Below are positions 2,893-31,825 of a stretch of 34,603 nt of DNA, in pieces. The notes beneath the pieces are model-generated. The model did no database searches and had not been told where the DNA came from. It was given only the letters and a program-made list of their open reading frames with translations. A program made the translations under genes and the position numbers. This stretch comes from Minisyncoccota bacterium (lineage in GTDB: Bacteria > Patescibacteriota > Minisyncoccia > UBA6257 > MFKM01), in contig JAVHOD010000052.1 of the NCBI GenBank assembly GCA_036169835.1, positions 1 to 34,603 on the forward strand. The letters are read 5' to 3'. Position 1 is the first letter of the stretch, and every line of letters starts with the position of its first letter.

Positions 2893-3091
2893 AAAAAAAG
2901 AAAAAGAATCGGTTGCCGGTCTCCTTTACCGCTTCAGTTTAAAGATGAAACAAAGCGGGATACTTCGCGAAGTTAAGAAGCGGCGTTTTTATCATCGGCC
3001 GCCTAATCGCCGCAAAACTCGGATCGCGGCTGTTTATCGCGAAGGCAAAAAGAAAGAGCTGGAGAAAGCCAAAAAATTAGGCGAATTATGA
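2882..3091 (+). CDS. rpsU: 30S ribosomal protein bS21
   Basis: 69 aa, very basic, S21-like core (LLYRFSLKMKQSGILREVKKRRFYHRPPNRRK). It overlaps the HIT stop by 11 nt and the ybeY start by 4 nt. Confidence 0.75.
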   Translation: MEIRKKEKESVAGLLYRFSLKMKQSGILREVKKRRFYHRPPNRRKTRIAAVYREGKKKELEKAKKLGEL

Positions 3092-3492
3092 ACGAAATTT
3101 CGGTTGTCAGTCTGAATAATAAATACCGATTTTTAGAGAAAAAAATAAGAAGGATAACCCACAAATTCCTTCAATTGCTGAAAAAAGAAAATTGTCATTT
3201 AGGGATTTTTTTAGTTACCAGCCGGAAAATGAAATTTTTAAATAAGAAATTCAGAAATAAAGACAAGACGGCCGAAATTCTTACTTTTATTGAACCGAAA
3301 AAATATCCCCATCCGGAATCCAAGTTTAAATTTCTTGGGGAAATTTATTTAAATCCCGATTGTATCGCGCCGGAAAATATTAGCCGTCTGGCAGCCCACG
3401 GCCTGCTTCATTTATTCGGTTTTTTTCACAAGAAAAAAAGTGATAGAATAAGAATGGAGGCTAAAGAATATTTTTTAATTTCCCATGTCTAA
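3088..3492 (+). CDS. ybeY: rRNA maturation endoribonuclease YbeY
   Basis: 134 aa with the zinc motif HGLLHLFGFFH (H-x3-H-x5-H). Confidence 0.85.
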   Translation: MNEISVVSLNNKYRFLEKKIRRITHKFLQLLKKENCHLGIFLVTSRKMKFLNKKFRNKDKTAEILTFIEPKKYPHPESKFKFLGEIYLNPDCIAPENISRLAAHGLLHLFGFFHKKKSDRIRMEAKEYFLISHV

Positions 3493-6162: not shown

Positions 6163-6663
6163 ATGGCAAACAATGCGGCTTTTATAGATAGTAATAATCT
6201 TTATAAGGCAATGGAGATGATAGGCTGGAAGTTGGATAACGCCAAGTTCAGGACATTTCTTTCAGATAAGTATGATGTTTTGAAAGCTTATTTGTGCATC
6301 GGGTATGTACCGCAAAATCAGGCGATGTACACTAAACTGCAACAAAAAGGTTATATTCTGGTTTTCAAACCAATTCTTACGCTAAAAGACGGAACGACAA
6401 AGGGCAATTGCGACGCCGATCTTGTTTTGAGGGCGATGATTGAATATCCTAATTACGATAAAGCAGTCATTGTCGCCGGAGACGGGGATTATTATTCTTT
6501 GATTGATTACCTGAAATCGCAGAATAAATTAGAGCAAGTTCTTGTTCCCGATGAGGAGAGATATTCCGCGTTGCTTAAAAAGGTGAATGATGAGCATTTG
6601 AAATATATTTCCTTCATCAGTCGGATGAAAAATAAATTAGAATATTTATCGAAGAAGCCCTAA
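6163..6663 (+). CDS. NYN/LabA-like (PIN-related) nuclease-domain protein
   Basis: 166 aa with motifs FIDSNNLY, KGNCDADLV and VAGDGDYYSL, typical of the NYN (DUF88/LabA) domain. Confidence 0.7.
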   Translation: MANNAAFIDSNNLYKAMEMIGWKLDNAKFRTFLSDKYDVLKAYLCIGYVPQNQAMYTKLQQKGYILVFKPILTLKDGTTKGNCDADLVLRAMIEYPNYDKAVIVAGDGDYYSLIDYLKSQNKLEQVLVPDEERYSALLKKVNDEHLKYISFISRMKNKLEYLSKKP

Positions 6664-7818: not shown

Positions 7819-9927
7819 TTATTTGACAGCAGTTGTGGATTTTATTTTAAAAGTTTTTCTCTCTTTAAATTCCTCTTGTTTACCCAAATTCCACTGCGAT
7901 ACCGGTCTTAAATACCCAACAATCCTTGAATAAACCTCGCAGGGCTGTTTGATGGCGCATTTCGGACAGAGGAAATGTTCTCCGGTTAAATAACCGTGAG
8001 TGGGGCAGATGGAGAAGGTGGGCGTTAAAGTGACATAAGGCAGATGAAAATTTTCAAAAACTTTTTTAATCAGATTTTTGGCGGTTTGGACGTCGGAAAT
8101 TTTTTCTCCCAGTAAAAGATGCAGAACAGTGCCGCCGGTGTATTTGGCTTGAATTTCGTCTTGCAGTTTTAAGGCCTCAAAAATATCATCAGTGTGATTA
8201 ACCGGCAATTGGGTAGAGTTGGTATAATAAGGTGTTTTTTTTGTGCCAGCCGAAATAATTTCGGGATATTTTTCTTTGTCTTTTTGTGCCAGCCGATAAG
8301 CGGTTGATTCCGCCGGGGTGGCTTCTAAGTTATATAAATATCTGGTCTCTTCTTGGTATCGGATTAATCGTTCTCTCATGAAATCCAAAACTTCCAAGGT
8401 GAATTTTTTTCCGCTTTTGGAAGATATGTCTTCATTCATAAAATTCAACAGGGCTTCATTCATTCCAACCAAGCCAATAGTGGAAAAATGATTGGCATAA
8501 TAAGCGTTTCTCATTTTTTTTACTCCGGAAAGATAATATTTTGAATAAGGGTACAGACCTTTTTCAATGAAATTTTCAACGGCTTTTCTTTTGATTTCCA
8601 AGCTTTCTTTGGCCAAATCCATGACTTCGGCTAACCTCTTAAAAAATTCTTTTTTGGTTTTAGAAAGATAACCGAGCCGGGGCAAATTGACGGTGACGAC
8701 TCCGATAGAACCGGTCAGGGGATTGGAGCCGAATAAACCGCCGCCCCGCTTGTAAAGCTCGGCATTACTCAAACGCAAACGGCAACACATACTCCGGACG
8801 TCTTCGGGTTTCATATCGGATAGGATGAAATTTGAAAAGTAATTTACTCCATATTTGGCCGTGGCTTCCCACATTGGTTTTAAAGCCGGGCTATCCCAGG
8901 GAAAATCCTTGGTGATATTAATGGTCGGGATGGGGAAAGTAAAAGGCCGGCCCTTGGCGTCTCCTTCCATCAGGACTTCGTAAAATGCCCGGATTAAAAC
9001 GTTCATTTCTTCCTGGAAATCCTTATAAGTTTCCTTTTGCGGTTTGCCGCCGATAATCACTGATTGATTGGCCAGGGCCGCTGACGGGGAGACGTCCAAA
9101 GTGATATTAGTGAAAGGATTCTGGAAACCAACCCGGGTAGGAATGGCGCAATTGAAAATAAATTCTTGGAGTGCCTGTTTGACTTGCTGATAGTTTAAAT
9201 TATCGTATCTGATAAAAGGGGCGAGCAGGGTGTCAAAATTAGAAACGGCTTGAGCGCCGGCTGATTCTCCCTGGAGGGTATAAAAGAAATTAACCAGCTG
9301 GCCCAAAGCGCTTCGGAAATGCTTGGCTGGCCCAGCTTCCACTTTACTCGCCACGCCGCCGAAGCCCTTTACTAAAAGGTCATACAAATCCCAACCGCAA
9401 CAATAAGTGGCTAAAGAATCCAAATTATGAATATGAAGGTCGCCGCTTTCCGCCGCTTGCCGGATTTTTTCGGGATAAATTTTATTAAGCCAATATTTTT
9501 TGGTGACGGCGGAAGTGACGTAATGATTTAACCCCTGGAGAGAATAAGCCATATTGGCGTTTTCCTTGACCTGCCAATCCAATTCGGAAATATACTGGTC
9601 AACCATTTCCACCGCTTCATTAATGGCGGTGGAGGCCTCTCTTATTTTCCGGCGTTGTTCCCGGTACAAGATATATGCCTTGGCGGTTTCGGCAAAGCCC
9701 TCTAAAATTAAAACTTCTTCCACGATGTCCTGGATTTCTTCAACGGTGGGAATTTCCGTTTTTTTGAAACGACGTTGCATTAAAGAGGCGACTTTGTCGG
9801 AAATTTGTTTGGCCTTTTTGCCGTCGCCTTGGTCGCTGGCGGTCAGCGCTTTAACGATGGCTTGCGTGATTTTTTCTTGCTCAAATTTTACTATCCGGCC
9901 GTCTCTCTTTTTGATTTCGTTGGACAT
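7819..9927 (-). CDS. nrdD: Anaerobic ribonucleoside-triphosphate reductase (class III)
   Basis: It has an ATP-cone N-terminus (KRDGRIVKFEQEKI) and the RSMCCRLRL thiyl loop. The C-terminus has a Zn ribbon (CPTHG..CPKC) and the glycyl-radical motif RIVGYLRP. The start is placed at ATG 9927 (MSNEIKK) instead of the ORF-track start at 9990. Confidence 0.9.
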   Translation of the reverse strand: MSNEIKKRDGRIVKFEQEKITQAIVKALTASDQGDGKKAKQISDKVASLMQRRFKKTEIPTVEEIQDIVEEVLILEGFAETAKAYILYREQRRKIREASTAINEAVEMVDQYISELDWQVKENANMAYSLQGLNHYVTSAVTKKYWLNKIYPEKIRQAAESGDLHIHNLDSLATYCCGWDLYDLLVKGFGGVASKVEAGPAKHFRSALGQLVNFFYTLQGESAGAQAVSNFDTLLAPFIRYDNLNYQQVKQALQEFIFNCAIPTRVGFQNPFTNITLDVSPSAALANQSVIIGGKPQKETYKDFQEEMNVLIRAFYEVLMEGDAKGRPFTFPIPTINITKDFPWDSPALKPMWEATAKYGVNYFSNFILSDMKPEDVRSMCCRLRLSNAELYKRGGGLFGSNPLTGSIGVVTVNLPRLGYLSKTKKEFFKRLAEVMDLAKESLEIKRKAVENFIEKGLYPYSKYYLSGVKKMRNAYYANHFSTIGLVGMNEALLNFMNEDISSKSGKKFTLEVLDFMRERLIRYQEETRYLYNLEATPAESTAYRLAQKDKEKYPEIISAGTKKTPYYTNSTQLPVNHTDDIFEALKLQDEIQAKYTGGTVLHLLLGEKISDVQTAKNLIKKVFENFHLPYVTLTPTFSICPTHGYLTGEHFLCPKCAIKQPCEVYSRIVGYLRPVSQWNLGKQEEFKERKTFKIKSTTAVK

Positions 9928-9958: not shown

Positions 9959-9967
9959 ATTCTATCA
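9959..9967 (-). promoter_or_regulatory. Extended -10-like box TGATAGAAT upstream of nrdD
   Basis: The rc of attctatca, about 32 nt upstream of the nrdD ATG. The 9-mer is identical to the one upstream of hisS. Confidence 0.4.
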
Positions 9968-10056
9968 CAGGCAATTACCGAAAACAACAAATTTAATAGC
10001 TGATTTTAATAATATTTTATGCTATAATTATAAAAATATTTGTTCTTTGTAAATAG

Positions 10057-10180
10057 GACTGCCGTCGTCTAACCAGGAAGGACGTCTTCGGAAAAAGCCA
10101 CAAGGGTTTATTGATCGGAGAGGCGCCTCTCTTAAGGCATTTTCAGAAGAAAGAGCGGGTTCAAATCCTTGCCGGCGGTC
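10057..10180 (+). ncRNA. tRNA-like structured element without a canonical anticodon loop, in the leader of the hotdog gene
   Basis: Acceptor-like stem: GACTGCCG 10057-10064 / CGGCGGTC 10173-10180 (8 bp, one G-U). D-arm-like: CGTC 10066-10069 / GACG 10081-10084, with a GG-containing loop. Third stem: TCTTC 10085-10089 / GAAGA 10146-10150. T-arm-like: GCGGG-TTCAAAT-CCTTGC (10155-10172). A 56-nt insert sits where the anticodon loop should be. A TGCTATAAT -10-like box lies at 10020-10028. Confidence 0.45.
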
Positions 10181-10206
10181 TTTAATAAAAATAAGGAGGT
10201 GAAGCG

Positions 10207-10656
10207 ATGGCTAATCTTTTACAAGAAAGAATTTTAGAAAAGGAAGAAATTGAAGAATTTATTCCTCATCGGGGAAAGTGGTTGCTTTTGGATAAAGTTA
10301 CGGAAATCCAGGAAAAATCCATTGTCGCCATAAAAACATTTACCGCGGAAGAATGCGAAGGGCATTTTGGGATAGTCCCCGGACATTTAATTTGTGAAGC
10401 TTTAGCTCAAGCCGGCGCCGTTTTGGTTGGTTACCGTTGTGCTTCTTCTGGAAATAAAAAAATTCCGCTTTTAAGGCATGTTACTGACGCAAAATTTATT
10501 TCTGTGGTGAGACCCGGTGAACGAGTGACGCTTGAAGTGGAATTAATAAATTCAAAAGAGGATGTTTTCTTGTTAAGAGGGATGGCCTTGATCAGCCTGA
10601 AAAAAGTTGTCAGCTGGGAAGGAACGGGCTTTGCTACGGATGAATTGAAATTTTAA
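10207..10656 (+). CDS. FabZ/FabA-like hotdog-fold dehydratase family protein
   Basis: 149 aa with motifs IPHRGKWLLLD and HFGIVPGHLICEALAQ. A strong SD aaggaggtg lies at 10193-10201. Confidence 0.7.
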   Translation: MANLLQERILEKEEIEEFIPHRGKWLLLDKVTEIQEKSIVAIKTFTAEECEGHFGIVPGHLICEALAQAGAVLVGYRCASSGNKKIPLLRHVTDAKFISVVRPGERVTLEVELINSKEDVFLLRGMALISLKKVVSWEGTGFATDELKF

Positions 10657-10662
10657 GATTTT

Positions 10663-10696
10663 GCCCTCCGACATTTTGTCAGAGGGCTTTTTATTT
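10663..10696 (+). terminator. Rho-independent terminator after the hotdog gene
   Basis: gccctccgaca-tttt-gtcagagggc followed by tttttatttt. Confidence 0.8.
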
Positions 10697-10700
10697 TATC

Positions 10701-10729
10701 TTGACGTTTTGATGCTTCAATTTTATTAT
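10701..10729 (+). promoter_or_regulatory. Sigma-70-like promoter for iorAB (TTGACG - 17 nt - TATTAT)
   Basis: -35 TTGACG at 10701-10706 and -10 TATTAT at 10724-10729, with a 17-nt spacer. It lies 22 nt upstream of the iorA ATG. Confidence 0.55.
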
Positions 10730-14445: not shown

Positions 14446-16338
14446 TTATTTTTGGAGCGTTTGAGTGAAGACGCGCATTATTGAGCCTGATAAAGATTCC
14501 GGATTAATAGAACCGCTGGGCGGAGGAGTGGTATTTTCGGTTGGCGGCGGAGTTTGAGTTGGCGGGGGAGGAGTATTACCTGTTGGCGGTTGCTGATTTG
14601 CCGGCGGCATCATTCCCTCCGGCGGATTTGTCATTCCCTGCTGGGGTTGTTGAGGTTGTTGTCCTTGTGGTGGCATATTTTGTTGAGTCGGCGGCTGTTG
14701 GTTGCCGGTTGGCGGCTGCTGTTGTGTTCGCATTTGTCCTTGTTGTCTAGGCTGTCCGGGTTGATTAAGTTGACCGGGCTGATTTGGTTGACTTGGTTGA
14801 AAATTTTTACATTCCTCAGGATTAGAAGTGCAGTATTTTTGGCATTCTTCCGGCCCCTTGCAACCGCCTGGACCAGCCTGCTGTGGCATTTGTTGGCCGC
14901 CTGGATTTACAGTCCCTGATCCAGGTTGAAAATTTTTACATTCCTCAGGGGTTTTACACCCGCCCAGCTCTCCTTGTCCGCCAGCCGACATCATACCTCT
15001 GGCGTTTGATCCGCCTTGGTCTTGAGACCCGCTTTGCCCCTGGCCTTGGGTTCCGCCCTGGCCTTGTTGATTTTGTTGATTTGACTGACCAGGTTGATCT
15101 TGGCCTTGCTGATTTTGACCCGGCCTTCTTTCTTGCGTTCCAAATTTTTGAAAACACTGATTGATAGAATCACCAGATTGTCGCCCAATCACAGATCCAG
15201 TTTTCATTTTTTCAACAACATCAGCGCCTAAAGAAGACGATATACAATCCAAAACTTCAGGCGGTATTGAAGAAAAAGAGTCTTTCATTTTTTGCTGGCC
15301 CTCTTCCATCCTTTTTAGATCAGCCTCGGGAATCATTCCATTTTCTTTGCCAAACTGAAAACAAGTTTCTTGATTGTCGGGATTATTGCAAAAAGTATCG
15401 CATTCGTCTTTGTTTTTACAGCCGCCCGGCCCCTTGCCTCCGGTCTTACGAACCATAACCGCGTCTTCTTTGCTCATAAACCCGGCCGCTTCAGCGAAGC
15501 TGGTGCATTCTTCAAAATGAGCGTCTTGCGAGCAATAAGTATTGCATTCCTCTTTGCCTTTACAGGCCGGCGGTTTTATCCCTTGTTTTATAGCCGCCAG
15601 CATTTTTTGGGAGTCGGCTTTTTCTTGTTCGTTCATAAAACCGGCTTCAATGGCGAAATTTGTACAAACTTCCATATTATTAGGTTCGCCGCAGTATTGG
15701 TCGCACGCTTCTTTGCCTTTACAGGGCGGCGGTTTCACGCCTCTTTTTAGAGCCGCCAGCATTTTTTGAGAATCTTCAAGTTCTTTGCCCTGGATAAAAC
15801 CCGCTTCCACGCCGAAAGCCACGCATTTCTCCATATTATTCGGGTCCTCGCAATAAGAATCGCATTCTTTTTTATTTTTACAGGGCGGCGGTTTCACGCC
15901 TCTGGCGATGGCCGCTTGAACTTGTTTGGCTTCCGCCAAATCTTTCGCCGACATTAAATTATTTTTTTCCGCGAAAGAAACGCAATCATTGATGTTGTTG
16001 ATATCGTCGCAATATGTTTCGCAGGCGTCTTTGCCGGCGCAGCCGCCGGGCCCCTTGCTCCCTGACGCCACGAAATTTTTGGCCGTATTGACTTCATCTT
16101 TCGACATCAGGTTGTTTTTTTCGGCGAAATTAAGACAAGCAGTGTTATTGTCCGATTTGTCGCAATAGGTCTTGCAGGATGCCGCGTCTTGGCAATTGCC
16201 AAGCTCCTTTACCGGATATTGGAGATTTGCCGCGCCGGCTGTTTCTTGAGCCAAAGCCACTTTATTAAATAAACCAACCGAGCCGATTATTGCTATCGCG
16301 GAGATGATAATAAAACTTATGAGATATTTTGTTTTCAT
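14446..16338 (-). CDS. Secreted cysteine-repeat protein with a Q/P/G-rich C-terminal half
   Basis: The start is placed at ATG 16338 (MKTKYLISFIIISAIAIIGSVG..., a signal/anchor). It has six about 45-aa modules with C-x5-C-x3-C-x9-C spacing followed by F(A/G)(E/I/V).. helices, plus two partial modules, then long Q/P/G/N low-complexity sequence. Confidence 0.8.
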   Translation of the reverse strand: MKTKYLISFIIISAIAIIGSVGLFNKVALAQETAGAANLQYPVKELGNCQDAASCKTYCDKSDNNTACLNFAEKNNLMSKDEVNTAKNFVASGSKGPGGCAGKDACETYCDDINNINDCVSFAEKNNLMSAKDLAEAKQVQAAIARGVKPPPCKNKKECDSYCEDPNNMEKCVAFGVEAGFIQGKELEDSQKMLAALKRGVKPPPCKGKEACDQYCGEPNNMEVCTNFAIEAGFMNEQEKADSQKMLAAIKQGIKPPACKGKEECNTYCSQDAHFEECTSFAEAAGFMSKEDAVMVRKTGGKGPGGCKNKDECDTFCNNPDNQETCFQFGKENGMIPEADLKRMEEGQQKMKDSFSSIPPEVLDCISSSLGADVVEKMKTGSVIGRQSGDSINQCFQKFGTQERRPGQNQQGQDQPGQSNQQNQQGQGGTQGQGQSGSQDQGGSNARGMMSAGGQGELGGCKTPEECKNFQPGSGTVNPGGQQMPQQAGPGGCKGPEECQKYCTSNPEECKNFQPSQPNQPGQLNQPGQPRQQGQMRTQQQPPTGNQQPPTQQNMPPQGQQPQQPQQGMTNPPEGMMPPANQQPPTGNTPPPPTQTPPPTENTTPPPSGSINPESLSGSIMRVFTQTLQK

Positions 16339-16339
16339 A

Positions 16340-16639
16340 TTATTCAAAAGGATTAGTTTTAACATTTTTAAAGGGGTTAGCTTTGTCGGCCGGATTGACG
16401 TCGGGTTTGCTTTCTAGGGGGTTTGCCCCTACCGAGGGCAGGACGCCTTTGGTGGCGCTTTCGGTTATAGCTCCCGCCGCTTCGCTGGCATTTTCCAATG
16501 CTTGGGTAAAGGCCTGGGACTCGGTTGACTTAGGCGTTGTTTTGGACTTTTTCCAATTACTCCAGTAGAAATAACCGCCGACTCCCAGCCCAATTAATAA
16601 AACGACCGCTATTATTAATAAAAGAGTTTTTTTATTCAT
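16340..16639 (-). CDS. Small membrane-anchored hypothetical protein
   Basis: 99 aa with an N-terminal TM helix (LLLIIAVVLLIGLGVGGYFYW). Its stop lies 1 nt upstream of the Cys-repeat gene start. Confidence 0.6.
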   Translation of the reverse strand: MNKKTLLLIIAVVLLIGLGVGGYFYWSNWKKSKTTPKSTESQAFTQALENASEAAGAITESATKGVLPSVGANPLESKPDVNPADKANPFKNVKTNPFE

Positions 16640-26533: not shown

Positions 26534-27037
26534 TTATCGCGGCCATCGCGACGGCACAGGAAAGGATAACGGGGGCATATTTGAAGCAGGGGGCGTTGGC
26601 ATTACCCTGATTAGTTTCGCCTCTATCTGGCCGGTGTCACTGGGCGAACCGATAACGACAATAAGTTCGTCAACTTTTAAATCGATTGGTCTAATGGTGT
26701 TCTGAAAGCGTTTGATAATAGTGTCGTTTTTCAATAAAATTATTTTTTCCGTGTCGTTTCGGTCTTTAATAATCAGAGTTGAACTGCTGATTTTAATAAT
26801 TGACCCGAAAACGCCGTTGGCTTCAATAAAATCTTTGCCGCCGAAATCTTCAAAAAATCCGGCGCGCGGCCCGGCAAAATTTTTATGATAATTTTCTCCC
26901 CAGCGATAGGAAAAACTGGCTTTTTTGAAACCAACCATTAAGCCGGTTTGAAAAACAATCAGAATAACGATAATCGCTCCGATTACCCAAAGCGTTATTT
27001 TCAGTGCTTTAGATTGTAAAAATTTGTTGAAATCCAT
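26534..27037 (-). CDS. Membrane-anchored hypothetical protein (domain shared with the 22311-22733 product)
   Basis: 167 aa with a TM helix at residues 15-35 approx. The C-terminal pattern is DLKVDELIVVIGSPSDTGQIEAKLIRV. Confidence 0.6.
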   Translation of the reverse strand: MDFNKFLQSKALKITLWVIGAIIVILIVFQTGLMVGFKKASFSYRWGENYHKNFAGPRAGFFEDFGGKDFIEANGVFGSIIKISSSTLIIKDRNDTEKIILLKNDTIIKRFQNTIRPIDLKVDELIVVIGSPSDTGQIEAKLIRVMPTPPASNMPPLSFPVPSRWPR

Positions 27038-27042
27038 AATCG

Positions 27043-27417
27043 TTAATGAGTGTTAACGGCCGCAAGAATAACTTTTGCGTCCCGGCTAAGAAATTTAAGC
27101 GACTGAAGAAAAACAAAAAGCACGGCAAGAAAGGCGATGACGCTCATTACCGGAAACGATTCCAAAATCGCGAAAAGAAAATTCTGCCAGTTGGCGAGCA
27201 CCGCGCCCAAATCGGAAAAAATAAGAGAAATAAAATTTAAAAATCCGGATTCGACCAGTCCTTTTTGAACCATATGCAAAGTCGGGACAAAAGCCGTCGC
27301 GGAAACTGCAAGGCCGAGCGAGAAAACGGCAATTCTTTGTTTTACGGCCGACCGGCGTTGCTCTTCCCCGATGCGAGTCATTATTTTATTAAAAAGTTTT
27401 TCGTAATTTGTGCTCAT
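27043..27417 (-). CDS. Putative anti-sigma factor / membrane protein
   Basis: 124 aa with a short cytoplasmic N-terminus followed by TM helices. It is the first gene after the ECF sigma gene. Confidence 0.45.
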   Translation of the reverse strand: MSTNYEKLFNKIMTRIGEEQRRSAVKQRIAVFSLGLAVSATAFVPTLHMVQKGLVESGFLNFISLIFSDLGAVLANWQNFLFAILESFPVMSVIAFLAVLFVFLQSLKFLSRDAKVILAAVNTH

Positions 27418-29253: not shown

Positions 29254-29892
29254 ATGAAATTCAACAAGAAACTGGTATTGCAGATAGTTGTGCTAATCGT
29301 CGGTTTGGCTCTGATAATTTCAGGCGTTATTAAAATCGTCGGCGGATTAAAGGGGTCAACAACCCCCGAAGTTATTAATAAATTTAATGAAATTTATGAC
29401 TTAGGAGGACAAATAGGGGATGAAATGAAAACAACCGGCGCTCTGTTAAATGGCATATCTGCCAAGGAGCAGGCGAAGGACTATGCTGGAGCGGTTAAGG
29501 ATACAAGCACGGCCATTTTAGGCATTGATAATGTAATTTCCGAGTTTAATGTTCTAAACATTAAAATTTCCGAGTTTAAGAAAATACTGAGGAATATTTC
29601 CGATTCAGCCGTGAAACAAAGCGGTTTGAAATTAGTCGGTTTATTGGAGCAAAGAAACGCTACTTCCCTAGACCTTATAAACAACACAAAACAGTTTGTT
29701 ATTTTATCTAAAACTTATTATGAAGAATTAGCAGCCGGAAAAACTGAAGTCAAAATTGACGAAACCCAAGCAAATAGTTTAATCCAGAAAATTACCCAAG
29801 CTGATAAAACCCTGTTGATATTGACACCTCAAGTCAACACTGCTACGCAGGATTTTGCCAAAACGGCCAACTTCCAACTGAAAACAAAATAA
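29254..29892 (+). CDS. Membrane-anchored hypothetical protein
   Basis: 212 aa with one N-terminal TM helix; the rest is predicted helical. No family was recognised. Confidence 0.55.
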   Translation: MKFNKKLVLQIVVLIVGLALIISGVIKIVGGLKGSTTPEVINKFNEIYDLGGQIGDEMKTTGALLNGISAKEQAKDYAGAVKDTSTAILGIDNVISEFNVLNIKISEFKKILRNISDSAVKQSGLKLVGLLEQRNATSLDLINNTKQFVILSKTYYEELAAGKTEVKIDETQANSLIQKITQADKTLLILTPQVNTATQDFAKTANFQLKTK

Positions 29893-31510: not shown

Positions 31511-31825
31511 TTATCGTCCGTAGCCGCCGCGGCCTCCGCGATCGCGGTCAAATCCGCCTGTCCGAGGAGCGCGAGGTTCCATCGGGCGAGCTTCATTTAC
31601 CGTGACGGTCCGTCCGTCGAGCTCTTTGCCATTGAACATTTCAATCGCTTTTAAAGCTTCTTCGTCGGATGTCATTTCCACAAAACCGAATCCCTTTGAA
31701 CGTCCAGACATTCTGTCAATGATGACAGTCGCTGTTTCAACGGCTCCGGCTTTAGCAAATGTTTCTTTCAGAGTATCCGCAGTGGTGTCGTATGACAATC
31801 CACCTACATACAATTTTTTTGCCAT
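31511..31825 (-). CDS. RRM-type RNA-binding protein with an RGG tail
   Basis: 104 aa with KLYVGGLSY (RNP2) and KGFGFVEM (RNP1). The C-terminus reads GGFDRDRGGRGGYGR. Confidence 0.9.
   Translation of the reverse strand: MAKKLYVGGLSYDTTADTLKETFAKAGAVETATVIIDRMSGRSKGFGFVEMTSDEEALKAIEMFNGKELDGRTVTVNEARPMEPRAPRTGGFDRDRGGRGGYGR

Follow-up and report, generated by a model that had tools for sequence, protein, structure and literature searches.

A conserved tRNA-like RNA in the 5' untranslated region of a FabZ-like gene from candidate phyla radiation bacteria as a predicted processing signal

In Arabidopsis mitochondria, non-canonical tRNA-like structures, designated t-elements, direct cleavage by ribonuclease (RNase) P and RNase Z at mRNA ends, and the motif GGTTCRANYCC has been used for finding them (PMC1920247). 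In Haloferax volcanii, t-elements were identified which are processed by both RNase P and RNase Z (PMC4326828). This paper describes an element of related architecture, located at positions 10057-10180 on the plus strand (124 bases) of a 34,603-nucleotide stretch of DNA from an uncultured groundwater Minisyncoccota bacterium (assembly GCA_036169835.1, contig JAVHOD010000052.1), the whole of which is called the window here. The element lies in the 5' untranslated region (UTR) of a gene coding for a FabZ-like protein of the hotdog fold, and together with its homologues it forms a new family of structured RNAs of about 105-130 nucleotides (nt), which is absent from Rfam. We favour, tentatively and by analogy, the reading that it represents a tRNA-mimicking t-element in the 5' UTR, a predicted processing signal which would be recognised by RNase P and RNase Z.

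The element resembles the mitochondrial t-elements of plants and those of H. volcanii (PMC1920247, PMC4326828) in that a non-canonical cloverleaf with a tRNA-type T arm is found in a precursor beside the coding region of an mRNA, that it has no role in decoding, and that its ends fall where an mRNA end would be made. It differs from them in being of bacterial origin, from the candidate phyla radiation (CPR), in the presence of a 47-70-nt rod in place of the anticodon arm, in stems of 8 and 6 base pairs (bp) and in that its cleavage is only predicted. In addition, it belongs to a conserved family present at a single locus, while t-elements are dispersed tRNA-derived copies.

Seven distinct sequences of the element were aligned, the one of the window and those of six metagenome loci (L006, L007, L008, L010, L016 and L018). 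In the window, the minimum free energy (MFE) fold of positions 10050-10190 is exactly the cloverleaf which the original prediction had proposed, with -44.3 kcal/mol and z = -2.44; two of 200 shuffled sequences were equally stable. Its four arms are the closing helix of 8 bp, the D-like arm, the third arm, which is rod-like and 66 nt long, and the T-like arm, with the following parts:

10057-10064, plus strand: 5' strand of the closing, acceptor-like helix (P1), GACUGCCG, pairing with 10173-10180 in 8 bp including one U-G
10065-10066, plus strand: two-nt linker, U-N as at tRNA positions 8-9, the first base an invariant U (like U8 of tRNA), the second variable
10067-10083, plus strand: D-like arm with the stem GUCU (10067-10070) / GGAC (10080-10083) and the 9-nt loop AACCAGGAA
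10084, plus strand: junction purine, similar to tRNA position 26; G in six of the seven sequences, A in L006
10085-10150, plus strand: long third arm in place of the anticodon arm, as given by the MFE fold; homologous arms of 47-70 nt in the relatives
10085-10089 / 10146-10150, plus strand: base stem of the third arm, UCUUC/GAAGA
10091-10095 / 10140-10144, plus strand: inner helix of the third arm, GAAAA/UUUUC
10097-10099 / 10136-10138, plus strand: next helix of the third arm, GCC/GGC
10117-10122 / 10127-10132, plus strand: apical hairpin of the third arm with a GCGC loop
10151-10154, plus strand: variable-loop-like linker AAGA; AAGA in five of the seven sequences, AAGC in L010, AAAA in L016
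10155-10172, plus strand: T-like arm, GCGGG / UUCAAAU / CCU(U)GC, with U10170 bulged
10173-10180, plus strand: 3' strand of P1, CGGCGGUC, followed by the invariant U10181

The closing helix with its single U-G pair, the third stem, the AAGA linker, the T-like arm and the palindrome near the arm tip had been read correctly by the original prediction. A D-like arm exists as well, though in another register than the CGUC/GACG stem with an 11-nt loop described at first, since the conserved stem is GUCU/GGAC with a 9-nt loop. The 56 nt enclosed by the third stem had been regarded as an insert replacing the anticodon loop. An anticodon loop is indeed missing; the 56 nt form not a loop, but the continuation of the helix and an apical hairpin. 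The closing helix can be extended from 8 to 9-10 bp, a possible ninth pair being G10056-U10181, present in six of the seven sequences. From position 10180 onward, no CCA is encoded after the 3' strand. The T arm of the window, GGTTCAAATCC, matches GGTTCRANYCC exactly. In most relatives the T stem comprises 6 bp; the window and L006 are devoid of the third 5' base, resulting in 5 bp with a bulged U (U10170 in the window).

Near the apex of the third arm a G-rich motif is present in all seven sequences (GGAGAGG, GGGGAGG, GGGAG, GGGAA, AGGGG, GAAGG and UGGGG). The arm tip is a GC-only palindrome, GGCGCC, in the window (10117-10132), L006 and L010, and GGGGCCCC in L018; in L007 and L008 an ACGGGAR loop is found instead. 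Judged from the sequence, these self-complementary tips could be candidates for loop-loop dimers. Inspection of the long arm by eye revealed no convincing kink-turn or signal recognition particle-like motif. The reading frames crossing the element are only short, unsupported, TTG-started frames, and a coding region was dismissed for want of a credible frame across it.

Conservation of the pairing was followed in two alignments. In the hand alignment of the seven sequences, 55 of 56 cells of the closing helix, all 28 of the D stem and 38 of 40 of the T stem are paired. Three pairs of the closing helix have changed on both sides, and in the D stem, with the consensus GUSU/GSAC, the third pair switches from C-G to G-C. 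In a model-based alignment 92.2% of the cells are in standard pairs, compared to 45-57% in slid controls, with five pairs changed on both sides. Without guidance, RNAalifold recovered the closing helix and the D stem, and of the T stem its inner 3 bp. The third arm has diverged in sequence among the relatives, while it is always a rod with small internal loops, and here also compensatory changes were identified: A10119-U10130 is replaced by G-C in L006, and between L007 and L008 adjacent U-A and A-U pairs are exchanged for C-G and G-C. G-U pairs are numerous and A-C mismatches only isolated, namely a single C·A and a single A·C in L016, in agreement with transcription from the plus strand. The RNA core is 74-94% identical, compared to 31-69% at the four-fold degenerate sites of the adjacent gene and 50-85% for the proteins. 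Because the identity of the core exceeds that of the four-fold sites, the RNA is judged to be under purifying selection. The alignment of relatives which had been called for originally thus showed conserved paired positions and a long arm in every carrier.

Several of the conserved bases are those of a tRNA. Invariant in all seven sequences are the U at the position of U8, the T-loop bases U54, U55 and A58, and a purine at position 57. The T-loop consensus is U-U-Y-R-A-R-Y, with 7 nt in six sequences and 8 nt in L016, and position 56 is C in two and U in five. The D loop comprises 8-9 nt, with A as first and last base in six of the seven sequences. The third-from-last D-loop base and T-loop position 56 form a candidate 19-56 elbow pair (G-C, G-C, A-U, G-U, A-U, A-U and A-U), so that a tRNA-type contact of D loop and T loop may covary; this covariation rests on one or two evolutionary events. 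Also invariant are the closing pair G10057-C10180 and U10181.

Assignment to a known class was attempted with ARAGORN and Rfam 15, as the original prediction had advised, and no known family claims the region. At default settings (tRNA and tmRNA, transfer-messenger RNA) ARAGORN reported nothing in the window, and default tRNA searches with or without introns, as well as the tmRNA mode (-m), reported nothing in the seven elements. In the window, no Rfam 15 model reached its gathering score; at E <= 10, the sole match overlapping the element was a chance alignment to SNORA33 (E = 0.58) over its 5' part, and none was obtained in the six relatives. A tmRNA, a Y-RNA module or any other Rfam family was excluded by the missing ARAGORN and Rfam matches and by the absence of a plausible tag reading frame in the element. 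A working tRNA was likewise ruled out by the stems of 8 and 6 bp, the lack of a 7-nt anticodon loop and the lack of an encoded CCA.

Canonical tRNA genes which are co-transcribed with mRNAs nevertheless share with the element the order of the arms, U8, the 4-bp D stem, the T-loop motif and a G-C pair ending the acceptor helix, and differ from it by their anticodon loop, by a 12-bp instead of a 14-bp stack and by being detected with ARAGORN and the Rfam tRNA model; the element lacks both the loop and an encoded CCA. The tRNA-like domain of tmRNA is similar in that an acceptor helix and a T arm are joined to a long helix replacing the anticodon arm, without decoding by an anticodon. In contrast to tmRNA, the element is only about 125 nt long, has a proper D stem and contains neither a tag reading frame nor pseudoknots. 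The YrlA module of bacterial Y RNA, the mascRNA of MALAT1 and viral tRNA-like structures are further copies of the L shape of tRNA which engage tRNA-binding factors, as is proposed here. YrlA is circularly permuted relative to the element and ends on the anticodon side, and mascRNA and the viral structures are located at 3' ends; no Rfam match of the element to the Y RNA, mascRNA or viral tRNA-like families was obtained.

By its content, the window resembles a Patescibacteria (CPR) genome. In it, the element is located between divergent genes: nrdD (7819-9927) and nrdG on the minus strand, and on the plus strand the FabZ-like hotdog gene followed by the genes for pyruvate:ferredoxin oxidoreductase (POR). 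The transcription unit and its borders contain these features:

9959-9967, minus strand: extended -10 box of nrdD, TGATAGAAT; its plus-strand reading TATCAYAGG is kept in most relatives
10020-10028, plus strand: extended -10 box TGCTATAAT, with a weak -35-like CTGATT at 10000-10005; promoter of the element and the FabZ-like gene
10036-10055, plus strand: single-stranded 5' leader AUAUUUGUUCUUUGUAAAUA, about 21 nt, conserved, also in relatives without the element
10193-10201, plus strand: ribosome-binding site aaggaggtg, beginning 13 nt after the element
10207-10656, plus strand: FabZ-like hotdog-fold gene, 149 amino acids, ATG at 10207; Pfam FabA-like, E = 2e-11
10663-10687, plus strand: terminator-like hairpin GCCCTCCGACA/TGTCAGAGGGC, followed by a T run (to 10695)
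10701-10729, plus strand: separate promoter-like site of POR, TTGACG-17-TATTAT, upstream of the POR genes

Both the -10-like box upstream and the ribosome-binding site 13 nt past the element had been noted before and were confirmed. A sigma-70-type promoter (TTGACT/TTGCTT, 16-17 nt, TATAAT-like) is present at the same place in L006, L007, L008, L009, L010, L017 and L018, and we infer a transcription start near 10035. Since the FabZ-like gene has its own terminator-like hairpin and POR a separate promoter-like site, the gene is probably transcribed as a single-gene unit, in the order promoter, leader of about 21 nt, element, ribosome-binding site, one gene and terminator. The nrdD promoter lies between nrdD and the element, so that the element belongs only to the plus-strand transcript; an origin from the opposite strand or as an nrdD leader was excluded by the G-U content and the promoter positions. 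The hotdog protein matches the NCBIfam models for FabZ below their cut-offs, and its nearest solved structures are FabZ dehydratases. It is encoded by the only gene ever found downstream of the element.

An 11-nt inverted repeat, AAACAACAAAT / ATTTGTTCTTT at 9982-9992 / 10038-10048, flanks the promoter of the hotdog gene, with one arm inside the leader; both arms are kept in the relatives, those without the element included. As a sequence feature, it may be a DNA operator common to the divergent nrdD and hotdog promoters. If so, the leader would be conserved because its arm belongs to this operator.

The distribution of the family was traced through the protein. Seventeen homologues of the hotdog protein were found, and for 12 of them the surrounding DNA was fetched. 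The element is present in the same place in L006, L007 (= L015), L008, L010 (= L011, L014), L016 and L018. L003 (= L019), L009, L012 and L017 are without it, and there the promoter and the leader have stayed joined to the ribosome-binding site; in L005 it is cut down to the T hairpin and the 3' strand. In the carriers, the order of promoter, leader, element and ribosome-binding site is constant in seven lineages, always before the FabZ-like gene. In a neighbour-joining tree of the proteins the carriers occur in both main clades, and L017, L003/L019, L009 and L005 are nested among them; the simplest history suggested by this tree would be a single gain, after which the element was lost three times and truncated once.

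In L005 (2940-2990), a perfect GCGGG/CCCGC T hairpin and the 3' strand GGCGGTTC are joined directly to the conserved leader, and a new hairpin, AAATTACGAAATACGCGTTTCGTAATT, is found upstream of the -10 box. In L009 (1105-1160) and L017 (330-367), both without the element, 11 purine-rich bases (ATAAAGAGAAT and AGAAAGGGGAT, respectively) separate the leader from the A-run that precedes the ribosome-binding site; by their sequence they may be what a deletion has left of the region of the arm and linker. L007 (1737-1765), L008 (570-600) and L015 have an additional hairpin, UGCCU-ACCGGC-AGGCA, which follows the element and precedes the ribosome-binding site; it is absent from the window.

The original prediction had also considered that the element might represent a new class of small RNA. 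In a limited sense this is borne out, since the family is conserved and has no counterpart in Rfam 15; it is, however, narrow and occurs at a single locus. When the window and all fetched loci were searched with a covariance model derived from the seven sequences, no further copy was identified. A scan of metagenome DNA with a pattern of the T arm and the 3' strand returned the same locus twice (L014, L015) and a chance match in a coding region (L013), and the same pattern gave no match in the viral contigs scanned. Since these searches revealed no other true copies, the family is confined to one locus in a small clade of Jorgensenbacteria-like CPR bacteria from groundwater. The groundwater samples in which these contigs occur include SRR25490521, the SRR22388xxx runs and those of Hainich H41. 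The closest species genome with the FabZ-like gene is a Candidatus Jorgensenbacteria assembly, and a scan of a genome collection with a profile of the FabZ-like protein returned only two loci, both without the element.

For the favoured processing by tRNA end-processing enzymes, the following course is envisaged. After adopting an L-shaped fold like that of tRNA, the element would be cleaved by RNase P at the 5' border of the closing helix (near 10056/10057) and by RNase Z at its 3' border (near 10180-10182). The FabZ-like mRNA would be freed of the conserved 21-nt leader and of the element, and its 5' end would be set about 12 nt before the ribosome-binding site, by which its stability or translatability would be determined; a stable tRNA-shaped by-product would be released. 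This reading is favoured because of the tRNA-type junction and T loop, the invariant G-C pair at the end of the helix, the invariant U without CCA, and the position in a precursor ahead of an mRNA. RNase Z cleaves immediately 3' of the discriminator, an activity that is suppressed by cytidines directly following this site (PMC7479834), so that a trailer starting with U and without CCA fits this enzyme. A tRNA-mimicking leader acting as an RNase P/Z or regulatory signal had already been suggested in the original prediction; position, strand, architecture and conservation agree with it, while the cleavage is only predicted.

Several observations weigh against a processing role. The stack of acceptor and T stems comprises 14 bp (8+6) compared to 12 bp (7+5) in tRNA, and position 10056 usually pairs with 10181; both could hinder RNase P cleavage or shift its site. 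G18-G19 of the D loop is kept in only three of the seven sequences, the equivalent of the 15-48 pair is A/A, and the Rfam tRNA model (RF00005) gave no match at E <= 10 in the region of the window or in the six relatives. Within the carrying clades, three lineages have lost the element and a fourth has a truncated one, with the gene and the promoter retained; the function of the element is therefore dispensable. A processing role also leaves unexplained why a long, variable and always helical third arm with a G-rich apex is maintained.

A possible, on the whole doubtful, alternative is a cis-regulatory leader, either a riboswitch or a protein-binding RNA, in which the cloverleaf would be bound by a ligand or protein and the ribosome-binding site, 13 nt further on, would become more or less accessible. 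Closure of P1, for instance, could bring CUCUUU of the pyrimidine-rich leader beside AAGGAG of the ribosome-binding site, so that both pair. This role agrees with the finding that the structured domain is conserved in all seven lineages and always lies in the 5' UTR of the same gene family. In folds of the full UTR the leader pairs with the region of the ribosome-binding site flanking P1 in L006, L010 and L018, the unpaired probability of the site being 0.01-0.54, and a duplex of leader and ribosome-binding site of -5.6 to -10.3 kcal/mol is obtained in all seven sequences. These energies are, however, no better than those of shuffled leaders in six of the seven (fraction at least as good 0.10-0.32; 0.04 in L018), and the leader is equally conserved without the element and constitutes half of the inverted repeat flanking the promoter, which suggests an operator instead. 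No terminator-like expression platform is located between element and gene, the conserved unpaired bases are those serving the own fold of tRNA, with no obvious new pocket, and the family is very narrow and easily lost.

It is unlikely that the element serves as a 5' stabiliser, a compact GC-rich structure, perhaps with a G-rich apex resembling a ribosome-binding site, which shields a short mRNA from 5'-end-dependent decay. Within the AT-rich UTR of this single-gene transcription unit, which has its own terminator, no other structure is as stable as the element (-44 kcal/mol over its 124 nt), and the G-rich apex motif recurs in all seven sequences. On the other hand, this motif is base-paired in the window, and the approximately 21 single-stranded nt ahead of the structure are unfavourable for 5' protection. 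A simple hairpin would suffice for such a purpose, leaving the tRNA-like junction, the T loop and the linker bases without explanation.

Quite improbable is a free-standing tRNA-shaped RNA, which would be excised, provided with CCA, aminoacylated or bound as a tRNA decoy, and used outside the ribosome. As a variant of equally low probability, the excised RNA without anticodon would be charged via its tRNA-His-like acceptor, or would act as a decoy or sensor coupling the capacity for tRNA processing or charging to the expression of the FabZ-like gene. The 8-bp stem with the invariant G10057-C10180 cap, followed by an invariant U, recalls tRNA-His, histidyl-tRNA synthetase is able to charge substrates without an anticodon, and the rod-like third arm would bar decoding. 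However, no CCA is encoded, a 6-bp T stem in a 14-bp stack is unlike any chargeable tRNA, and the first pair past the cap is A-U or G-U, not G-C. The repeated loss speaks against a core function, and the gene for histidyl-tRNA synthetase in the window is 8 kb off, without linkage.

Still less probable is a decaying tRNA pseudogene with no present function. The tRNA-like wiring has defects in every arm, and the element is absent or truncated in several relatives, as such a pseudogene would be. Nevertheless, the identity of the core of 74-94% despite near-saturated four-fold sites (31-69%) and the compensatory changes in closing helix, D stem, T stem and long arm speak strongly against decay. 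A related suggestion of the original prediction, a tRNA gene invaded by a GC hairpin module, has to be abandoned: the palindrome GAGAGGCGCCUCUC (10118-10131) has a single occurrence within the window, a homologous covarying arm is present in all relatives with the element, and there is no consistent anticodon. Because all of these relatives carry a diverged and compensated homologous arm, the long arm is ancestral and not the result of a recent invasion, while an ancient origin of the element from a tRNA gene is possible.

A functional tRNA gene with an intron in the anticodon arm deserves hardly any credence, since ARAGORN at thresholds of 80% with introns allowed does report a cloverleaf in six of the seven sequences (Glu, Lys, Phe, Phe, Glu and Gly), but with six different anticodons, four amino-acid identities and inconsistent intron positions (lengths 10-55 nt), and since default thresholds give nothing, the stems are of 8 and 6 bp, the supposed intron is the covarying continuation of the stem, and no loop with U33 and purine-37 can be built.

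Mimics of tRNA within bacterial mRNAs are uncommon, and a conserved tRNA-like body with a rod for an anticodon arm has no entry in Rfam. Almost nothing is known, to our knowledge, about gene regulation in CPR bacteria. If the element is cut by RNase P and RNase Z, the mode of making mRNA ends by t-elements in organelles and archaea would extend to these bacteria, and the 14-bp stack of acceptor and T stems would provide a natural test of how both enzymes measure their substrates. Were the element a free tRNA-shaped RNA, bacteria with minimal genomes would possess a tRNA mimic of a new functional class. The biological reach is probably limited, since the family is small, comprising seven distinct sequences, occurs with a single gene and has been lost repeatedly.

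Elsewhere in the window, four sizeable reading frames of 639, 167, 124 and 212 amino acids are without a Pfam match (14446-16365, 26534-27417 and 29254-29892). Genes related to RNA code for histidyl-tRNA synthetase (1146-2459), the endoribonuclease YbeY (3088-3492), an NYN-domain protein (6163-6663) and an RRM-domain protein (31511-31825), none of which adjoins the element. The NYN domain is the nuclease fold of protein-only RNase P.

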